DNA from: Promethearchaeota archaeon
GTDB lineage: Archaea > Asgardarchaeota > Lokiarchaeia > Sigyniarchaeales > SOKP01
Length of the DNA stretch: 64,000 nucleotides
NCBI GenBank assembly: GCA_019058365.1
Contig: JAHPZE010000003.1
Location: 128,001-192,000, forward strand
Direction of reading: 5' to 3'
This document shows positions 2,367 to 21,946 of the stretch, one piece after another. Below the pieces are notes generated by a model that did no database searches, was not told the origin of the DNA, and was given only the letters and a program-made list of their open reading frames with translations. The position numbers were made by a program, and so were the translations under genes. The number at the start of each line of letters is the position of its first letter. Within the stretch, counting starts at the first letter, position 1.

Positions 2367-2684
2367 TTATTCTTGAATAACAATATTTTCTTCAGGAAAT
2401 CCAAGATCAATCAAGAATTTTTTCAATTTAAACCGATGATCTCCTTGGAGTTCGACTTCATTATCTCTTACAGTTCCACCAGAAGCGCATTTTTTTTTTG
2501 CTTTTGTTAGAATATTCTTAAGATTTACTTCGAAATTTCCAACGAACGTGATTACAGTAACAACCCTCCCCCATTTCCTCCTAGCGTTAGAAATTATTAT
2601 TTGTTGTTCATCGGCGCTTAAACTATCACATATACATAGTTCTTTTGGAAAACTACATATAGGACAAATCTCGTCGTCTTTAAT
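2367..2684 (-). CDS. sui1: Translation initiation factor aIF1 (SUI1), probable AUU start; absent from the ORF track
   Basis: Hand translation: IKDDEICPICSFPKELCICDSL...RRKWGRVVTVI...KKKCASGGTVRDNEVELQGDHR...LGFPEENIVIQE*. Archaeal N-terminal Zn knuckle plus SUI1 core (GGTV, LQGDHR). In-frame TGA TAA lies two codons upstream of ATT. Confidence 0.93.
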   Translation of the reverse strand: MKDDEICPICSFPKELCICDSLSADEQQIIISNARRKWGRVVTVITFVGNFEVNLKNILTKAKKKCASGGTVRDNEVELQGDHRFKLKKFLIDLGFPEENIVIQE

Positions 2685-3057
2685 GCTGTCTTATCACAAC
2701 CTTTATTGTTAAAACTTTTTAAAATTTAGTTCTAAAAAATAATAGAACAAAATCTTATAAAAATCTTTTTTATTTTGGAAAGAAACTTTTATAAAAACAA
2801 TACTTATTTAATTTGTTAGTTTTTTCACTGCAAATTTTTAGGATTTCAAAATTTTAAATTAAGTGTTACAGAAATTTAATGAGATAAATGAAAGTAACTA
2901 TTAATTACTAATTTCTCTCTAAATTAATTCAGTTTTCAACCTAAATTTTCTAAAATTTAGAATTGACCTTCCTAAGCAAAAAATATTTAAAGAAAAATTT
3001 TTATTATTTATCAATAAGCTTATTCTTAAAGTTAGAATATTAATGTGATAAATTAAA

Positions 3058-3585
3058 ATGCAGAGCTCATGGATTTTTAAAGTAATTGTTGCGGGTGCAG
3101 GGGGCGTTGGAAAAACAGCGATGATTACAAGGTATTGTACAGGAAAATTCGAGGAGGGATATAAAATGACAATAGGAGCAGGATTTCATACGAAAGCCGA
3201 AATGCTCGACACTGGAGAAGCCGTTAAAATGCAGTTATGGGATTTTGCCGGTGAAAAACGGTTCCGTGAACTCTTACCTGATTATTGCAAAGGTGCAAGT
3301 GGAGCATTTATATGTTTTGATATAAGTGATTATGATACTTTCAGAGAAATACCTGAATGGTTAAGGATAATTCGTCAAAAAGCCGGGTTTGTTCCCATAA
3401 TTCTTTTGGGAATGAAATGGGATCTTCCAGGACATGAAGTAGATTATGAAATTGCGAATGATTATGCTATTAAAGCGAAATGTAATCAATGCGTATTCTG
3501 TTCCTCAAAAGATAATATAAATATTAATGAATCTTTTCAAGCTATGGCAAAATGGCTGATCTATTACGCAGCCCAAGCAGATTGA
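3058..3585 (+). CDS. Rab-like small GTPase
   Basis: G1 GAGGVGKT, G2 YKMTIG, G3 WDFAGE, G4 MKWD, G5 CSSK; no C-terminal prenylation motif. Confidence 0.92.
   Translation: MQSSWIFKVIVAGAGGVGKTAMITRYCTGKFEEGYKMTIGAGFHTKAEMLDTGEAVKMQLWDFAGEKRFRELLPDYCKGASGAFICFDISDYDTFREIPEWLRIIRQKAGFVPIILLGMKWDLPGHEVDYEIANDYAIKAKCNQCVFCSSKDNININESFQAMAKWLIYYAAQAD

Positions 3586-20303: not shown

Positions 20304-21946
<1,643 letters not shown>

Follow-up and report, generated by a model that had tools for sequence, protein, structure and literature searches.

The aIF1 gene lacks a canonical start codon

The stretch of DNA analysed here (64,000 nucleotides of a Promethearchaeota archaeon genome, hereafter the window, to which all plain positions refer) carries on its minus strand, at 2367–2684, a gene for the translation initiation factor aIF1, a SUI1 protein: 105 codons counted from an ATT, followed by a TAA stop at 2367–2369. 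On that strand the frame reads TTG TGA (2696–2694) TAA (2693–2691) GAC AGC ATT (2684–2682) AAA GAC GAC GAG ATT TGT CCT ATA TGT and continues to the TAA at 2369–2367. The tandem TGA and TAA at 2691–2696 thus close the frame just 5′ of the ATT, as the first-pass annotation had described. Its further statement that no ATG, GTG or TTG precedes the zinc knuckle was also correct, and the earliest in-frame canonical codon proved to be a TTG at codon 86. Because none occurs before that point, the gene was missing from the list of open reading frames.

The product counted from the ATT matches Pfam SUI1 (PF01253; E 2.5e-18; 66.7 bits, cut-off 25.5; residues 26–97) and NCBIfam PRK00939 (E 4.6e-33, 113.5 bits against a threshold of 98). 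In the latter alignment residues 4–103 of aIF1 lie on positions 2–101 of a 102-position profile; therefore, the N-terminus obtained by starting at the ATT of 2684–2682 departs from the family norm by no more than two residues. The protein is of the archaeal type, as it is 105 residues long (about 100 are expected) and has the N-terminal zinc knuckle C7-x2-C10 and C17-x-C19 (C7-P-I-C10 ... C17-I-C19, codons at 2628–2666, minus strand), which is kept in all relatives. It is the sole SUI1 homolog in a 4.74-Mb assembly rated 100% complete; a second copy was sought in this genome and not found, the next match having only E 0.49.

In public records the gene is treated unevenly. The NCBI PGAP products of many relatives are called from ATT, begin with MKDD and are 105 residues long, and the products of other callers in public collections are shortened to 84, 90 or 70 residues. 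NCBI names the aIF1 of this family “stress response translation initiation inhibitor YciH” (P0002–P0008), a name that is a carry-over from a profile and not a functional assignment. Bacterial YciH, a SUI1-family inhibitor of translation initiation in the stress response, has the same Pfam domain, but the protein described here is archaeal, has an N-terminal zinc knuckle and is the only SUI1 homolog of its genome.

Initiation region of the aIF1 gene

The anti-Shine-Dalgarno sequence of this organism was taken from the 3′ tail of its 16S rRNA gene, which lies in the same window at about 20365–21856 on the minus strand (RF01959, 1451 bits; G000:C35:148365–149856). The 16S end reads GGATCACCTCCT, and GTGAT pairs with the AUCAC of the tail GGAUCACCUCCU, a complementarity that the first-pass annotation had pointed out. 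Upstream of aIF1, 7 nt separate the GTGATA at 2697–2692 (minus strand) from the ATT. The same arrangement, GTGATA-N7-ATG, was found at 3045–3060 on the plus strand in front of the divergent Rab-like GTPase gene (3058–3585), where GTGATA occupies 3045–3050 and the ATG begins at 3058, so the equal spacing claimed earlier for the two genes was confirmed. In aIF1 the pairing is part of an extended Shine-Dalgarno (SD) sequence, AGGTTGTGAT, at 2693–2702 (minus strand), which can form 3 + 5 bp with the anti-SD around a 2-nt internal mismatch. Inside the SD, at 2691–2699 (minus strand), lie a TTG-TGA “start-stop” in the aIF1 frame and, overlapping it, a GTG mini-ORF (MIRQH-stop) whose TAA overlaps the ATT.

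The proposed AUU initiation codon (2682–2684, minus strand) is the sole near-cognate codon within SD range and lies 8 nt 3′ of GTGAT, the spacer being the non-coding stretch at 2685–2692 (minus strand). Genome-wide, GTGAT is enriched 3–8 nt 5′ of first ATGs with a peak at 4–5 nt; the aIF1 spacer is longer than this optimum and is within the range that the genome uses, toward its long side. About 26 nt 5′ of the SD, a TATA-like ATTTTAAAAA (2716–2725, minus strand) coincides with a conserved alignment block and is a candidate promoter. Its position implies a short leader for the aIF1 mRNA, with a predicted transcription start.

No RNA structure masking the SD or the AUU was found by consensus or single-sequence prediction. 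The single-sequence fold of the initiation region had a z of −2.6, and the sole consensus hairpin, of 13 bp, is within the zinc-knuckle codons at 2628–2666 (minus strand), about 25 nt 3′ of the AUU; it is kept in sequence and shows no compensatory changes.

The probable AUU start is conserved within the family

The gene belongs to one Promethearchaeota (Loki) family, for which 151 genomes of the order were surveyed and 60 further loci were read. The ATT layout was seen across the family genera g1 and g12–g22, that is, in at least 12 genera, and was identical in 22/22 loci read from the same genus. When 79 named MAG loci, assigned to Promethearchaeota or Promethearchaeia and deposited by many studies, were compared, the start position was ATT in 76 and ATC in 3; a canonical in-frame start was present in none of the 79, and GTGA stood 9 nt upstream in all of them. 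Among 84 distinct 5′ ends with the layout AGGTTGTGA-N9-ATT, the counts were ATT 81, ATC 3, ATG 0 and ATA 0, where related genomes are non-independent samples. The claim of an AUU start would have failed if the close orthologs all had ATG; the orthologs read gave ATT or ATC. In a 30-genome sample of the family, the homologous codon of aIF1 was ATT, ATC or ATA in 25/25 loci and ATG in none.

The sequence around the codon varies in an informative manner. AGGTTGTGA is invariant in 83–84 of the 84 distinct 5′ ends, and its flanks are variable. Its two mismatched T's are as invariant as the rest (83–84/84), for which SD pairing alone is no explanation. The 9-nt spacer differs among the 84 ends and contains an in-frame TAA in 40 of them and a TAG in 4. 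In-frame stops occur 1–3 codons 5′ of the ATT, the relatives adding a TAG or TAA two codons before it. On the other side of the ATT, codons 2–5 (K-D-D-E) vary mostly at the third position, as is typical of translated sequence. The four-fold site of codon 8 has all four bases (CCT 30, CCA 27, CCG 8 and CCC 7). This saturation shows that there was ample mutational opportunity for an ATG to arise, and the change is therefore evidently not tolerated.

Two genus-level variations are helpful in judging the spacer. In some genera the SD and the ATT are separated by N8 instead of N9, and this 1-nt difference puts the GTG of the SD, which there sits within a perfect GAGGTGA, in frame with the ATT. In genus g22 the SD is GGAAGGA, no ATG, GTG or TTG is nearby, and the ATT is kept. 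The N8/N9 difference, together with g22 having no nearby GTG, indicates that the spacer is non-coding. In addition, three g16 genomes read ATC AAA, hence the TAA that ends the GTG mini-ORF is lost in them.

Five MAGs, belonging to genera g1 and g14, contain a second aIF1-like locus (L088–L092) with about 60–67% identity and a start of the form GAGGTGA-N8-ATT or ATA. These extra copies are paralogs or, the bins being rated 4–9% contaminated, sequence that comes from a different genus.

The frame, the SD and the family-wide comparison together support AUU well as the start of aIF1, and it is very likely, judging from these comparisons, that the protein is translated from the codon at 2684–2682.

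Other ways of starting or reading the frame

An assembly error, or a decaying pseudogene that has lost its true start, would leave the same picture of an absent canonical start, and nothing beyond that absence speaks for either. The same layout recurs in about 80 assemblies produced independently by many studies and in the 84 distinct 5′ ends, so an assembly error is excluded; a pseudogene would have to be the sole aIF1 copy of a genome rated 100% complete, with its frame intact. The probability of this explanation is negligible. A different genetic code or readthrough of the TGA-TAA was also rejected, as relatives carry additional TAG or TAA codons and an ordinary layout of SD and start suffices.

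Initiation might instead occur further in, at the second ATT (2669–2667) or at the ATA (2660–2658), giving a protein 5–8 residues shorter. Both are near-cognate codons, and one NCBI record of a relative begins with MCPLC, but their distances from the SD, 23 and 32 nt, exceed the range seen genome-wide, and both codons vary among relatives as sense codons do (ATT, ATA or ATC at the one; ATA, TTA, GTA or ACA at the other). Starting at the ATA would moreover drop the first Cys of the zinc knuckle. The third-position variation of the K-D-D-E codons and the family profile, which begins within 2 residues of the first ATT, also argue against an internal start, which is highly improbable.

Another possibility is that translation begins at the GTG of 2697–2695, which overlaps the in-frame TGA. 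A +1 frameshift at CAU-UAA-A would then lead into the aIF1 frame, as would reinitiation after the 5-codon mini-ORF (M-I-R-Q-H-stop), whose UAA overlaps the AUU; the mRNA may in this case be leaderless and begin near the GTG. The TATA-like box about 26 nt upstream would suit such an mRNA. The G-TGA is kept in most of the family, and the GTG frame is open in 25/25 spacer variants, ending at the TAA inside ATTAAA; however, this TAA is absent from the three genomes with ATC AAA, and g22, with its SD GGAAGGA and no ATG, GTG or TTG nearby, nevertheless retains the ATT. In the genera with N8 the GTG and the ATT share a frame, but in those with N9 they do not, a difference that a coding spacer would not tolerate. 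The GTG also lies inside the best anti-SD match and has no SD of its own. We consider this start quite unlikely. For a programmed +1 frameshift of the prfB type in particular, a slip at NAU-UAA could not re-pair, the ATC genomes lack the TAA and g22 lacks the GTG, and this candidate was rejected. More generally, neither the GTG frameshift nor the mini-ORF nor the TTG-TGA “start-stop” is universal, being absent in g22, g12, g20 and the ATC genomes.

Many genes of this genome probably start at AUU or AUA

The use of AUU and AUA as start codons across the genome was examined by an SD-anchored census of ORFs of at least 80 codons that have an in-frame stop no more than 15 codons upstream. For a 6-nt SD placed at the best spacing, the census gave ATG 75, ATA 27, ATT 26, TTG 21, GTG 7, CTG 6 and ATC 4, compared with 0–12 (mean ~5) for control codons. 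With a 5-nt SD, ATT reached 86 and ATA 78 against 8–55 for the controls. ATT and ATA together thus make up about 30% of the strongly SD-led starts, and at the best spacing each has about one-third the count of ATG and is no rarer than TTG or GTG. A strong SD probably precedes an AUU, AUA or AUC start in well over 100 genes, small GTPases among them.

When 20 SD-led candidates were scanned with Pfam, the domain began within residues 1–10 in at least 12, and the first canonical start of these lay 22–103 codons further in. They comprise an actin paralog, an NTP-transferase, ThiF, an SDR, a Fer4-ETF alpha, a Usp, DJ-1, a Ras-like GTPase, MGMT, two phosphodiesterases and a response regulator; example loci of AUU or AUA starts are L133 (C34:311881–313023), L134, L135, L137, L144, L148, L149 and L152. 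Since ATT and ATA starts are common here, the AUU does not single out aIF1, and any gene led by an SD has a high prior probability of starting in this way.

ARAGORN found only 30 tRNA genes in this genome and no tRNA-Met, despite the assembly being rated 100% complete; abundant introns in the tRNA genes, or split genes, are the probable cause. A pattern search of the genome for the initiator anticodon stem matched T-arms only.

The abundance of these starts brings up the possibility that the AUU of aIF1 is real but subject to no special regulation: AUU and AUA would be ordinary second-tier start codons on SD-led mRNAs, which the aIF1 of this lineage may tolerate, aIF1 would be one gene of many that use them, and its conservation would be due to slow evolution and tight constraint in the initiation region. 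The genome-wide surplus of ATT and ATA at the best SD spacing, which matches or exceeds that of TTG and GTG, and the at least 12 AUU- or AUA-start genes confirmed by Pfam fit this explanation. We traced six of these genes through the same 30-genome sample as aIF1. The NTP-transferase mostly kept its start, with ATT or ATC in 9/12 relatives, in line with an ordinary start. The others were more changeable: ThiF had ATT in about 9 relatives and ATG in about 17; DJ-1, which starts at ATA here, had ATC in one congener and ATG in 16 others including a congener; RACo, also ATA here, had ATG in 3/3 orthologs, one of them congeneric; and the actin paralog, ATT here, had TTG in its ortholog. For ETF-alpha one clear ortholog had ATA, and the paralogs had mostly ATG or TTG and in one case ATT. 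In total, ATG or TTG appeared at the homologous codon in 5/6 comparison families, within the genus in the case of RACo and DJ-1. In aIF1, ATG was found in 0/84 of the 5′ ends despite the saturated four-fold site close by, and this contrast speaks against an ordinary start.

The remaining initiation-factor genes of this genome, namely those for aIF1A (two copies) and for aIF2 alpha, beta and gamma, all start at ATG, another point against AUU being an ordinary choice for aIF1. The aIF2 gamma (L340, G000:C37) has an N-terminal extension of about 110 residues before the GTPase domain, with helix-hairpin-helix-like repeats (IGGIGKATAEKM ... IKGVGKTTAQKY).

aIF1 starts in other Asgard lineages

In the sister family, represented by one-contig genomes of 4.36 and 6.04 Mb, the codon before CCA AAA is TTG, GTG, ATG or ATA. 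Two loci of its genus g5 (L026 and L029) show an ATG or TTG in the −1 frame overlapping an in-frame TGA, followed by A6-C and ATA CCA AAA; they carry one extra base compared with a relative reading GTG AAA AAA ATA CCA, and can be read as having an ATA start or a +1 shift.

Beyond both families, loci were read from 21 further Asgard families after a search of 301 genomes. ATG was used throughout in 9 of the 21 families and GTG throughout in 4, GTG was mixed with another codon in two more, and TTG was the start in one. Three families had no canonical start, the layout being AGGAGG-N9-ATA in two and AGGAG-N10-CTG in one (L125 in f12, genus g55; L102 in f14; L118 and L119 in f20); a relative of the CTG case has GTG. 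Altogether aIF1 starts with ATG in about 17 of the 43 Asgard genera read. Weak aIF1 starts are therefore recurrent across Asgard archaea, yet not universal. The conserved near-cognate start that an alignment of Asgard 5′ ends was expected to reveal was borne out within the family and not across the Asgard archaea, and the same can be said of a weak start that is kept and not replaced by AUG (0/84 ATG in the family). Both tendencies bear on whether the aIF1 start is an ordinary one, the ATG starts of many other families speaking for it and the recurrence of near-cognate starts in distant lineages against it. Taken with the evidence from within the genome, an ordinary AUU start is quite possible, if on balance improbable.

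Discussion

The first-pass annotation had suggested that the AUU serves a negative feedback of the kind known for IF3 and eIF1. In the literature cited by PMC4705826, infC, the gene for IF3, starts at AUU and is under translational autocontrol (Butler, Springer and Grunberg-Manago 1987), and eIF1 (SUI1) has an AUG in poor context and regulates itself negatively (Ivanov et al. 2010, cited also in PMC6237735). As cited there too, the Sulfolobus aIF1 allows the 30S complex to bind AUG mRNA and not AUU mRNA in vitro (Hasenohrl 2009, cited in PMC4705826), and Pyrococcus aIF1 promotes local scanning and proofreading (PMC4705826, PMC6237735). That the aIF1 of the present lineage binds the 30S subunit and rejects non-AUG codons is assumed from these Sulfolobus and Pyrococcus proteins.

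In the start that we hold to be very likely, the extended SD AGGUUGUGAU pairs with the 16S tail and places the 30S subunit, and the initiator tRNA reads the AUU 8 nt downstream of the SD as Met; AGGUUGUGA would then lie inside the mRNA. The feedback is a further step. Because aIF1 would destabilise initiation complexes on non-AUG codons, initiation on the aIF1 mRNA would fall when the factor is plentiful and rise when it is scarce, as with infC and eIF1. The conserved, over-long SD spacing may add to this by making initiation rely more on the local scanning that aIF1 controls. Selection evidently holds the start weak, with drift among AUU, AUC and AUA only and never to AUG within the family. 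The level of aIF1 would also set the usage of the many other AUU and AUA starts in the genome.

That the gene of the factor starts at a codon which the factor would disfavour is the hallmark of the infC and eIF1 type, and the AUU start of aIF1 has this property. A weak start that was exceptional in its genome would mark the gene as a specific target, but in this genome the weak start is not exceptional. Because well over a hundred other genes apparently start at AUU or AUA, the AUU does not by itself prove feedback, and the proposal is weakened by the commonness of such starts here and by the many Asgard aIF1 genes that start at ATG. The lack of replacement by ATG in the family, the recurrence of weak starts in other Asgard lineages, the ATG starts of the other initiation-factor genes and the rejection of AUU by Sulfolobus aIF1 favour selection for a weak start on aIF1, as far as can be judged from sequence comparison. 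The conserved weak AUU thus fits a self-limiting feedback and does not prove one; we regard an IF3/eIF1-style feedback of aIF1 on its own AUU start as plausible by analogy, with somewhat less than an even chance of being correct. A further suggestion, that the aIF1 of this lineage, self-limited through the AUU and the long spacer, sets a stringency that allows more than 100 other genes, the actin paralog and small GTPases among them, to start at AUU or AUA, is tentative and rather doubtful.

The resemblance to infC lies in the gene of a factor that rejects non-canonical starts itself beginning at AUU behind an SD, with the weak codon conserved. IF3 and aIF1 are, on the other hand, unrelated proteins, and the feedback is proven for infC, whereas for aIF1 it is proposed from the sequence. 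AUU starts are very rare in E. coli, which makes infC a near-unique target there, in contrast to the numerous AUU and AUA starts of this archaeon. The resemblance to eIF1 is closer in descent: aIF1 is its ortholog with the same role in fidelity, and its own mRNA has a start site that the factor disfavours. The weakness, however, is in the codon itself with SD-guided placement in aIF1, and in the context of a scanned AUG in eIF1.

A literature search found no report of an AUU start for an archaeal aIF1, nor one of frequent AUU or AUA starts in Asgard archaea. The call from ATT is already present in the NCBI annotation, and we found no paper on the AUU start of aIF1.

Whether or not the feedback is real, gene callers that accept only ATG, GTG and TTG miss or truncate aIF1. 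Such callers probably also shorten over 100 further genes in each genome of this family, eukaryote-like signature proteins among them, and this distorts Asgard gene inventories and comparisons of N-termini. If the feedback is real, bacteria (IF3), eukaryotes (eIF1) and archaea (aIF1) would all have a fidelity factor that limits itself by way of a weak start, with the archaeal case in the lineage nearest to eukaryotes, and the same feedback logic would have arisen in all three domains of life.
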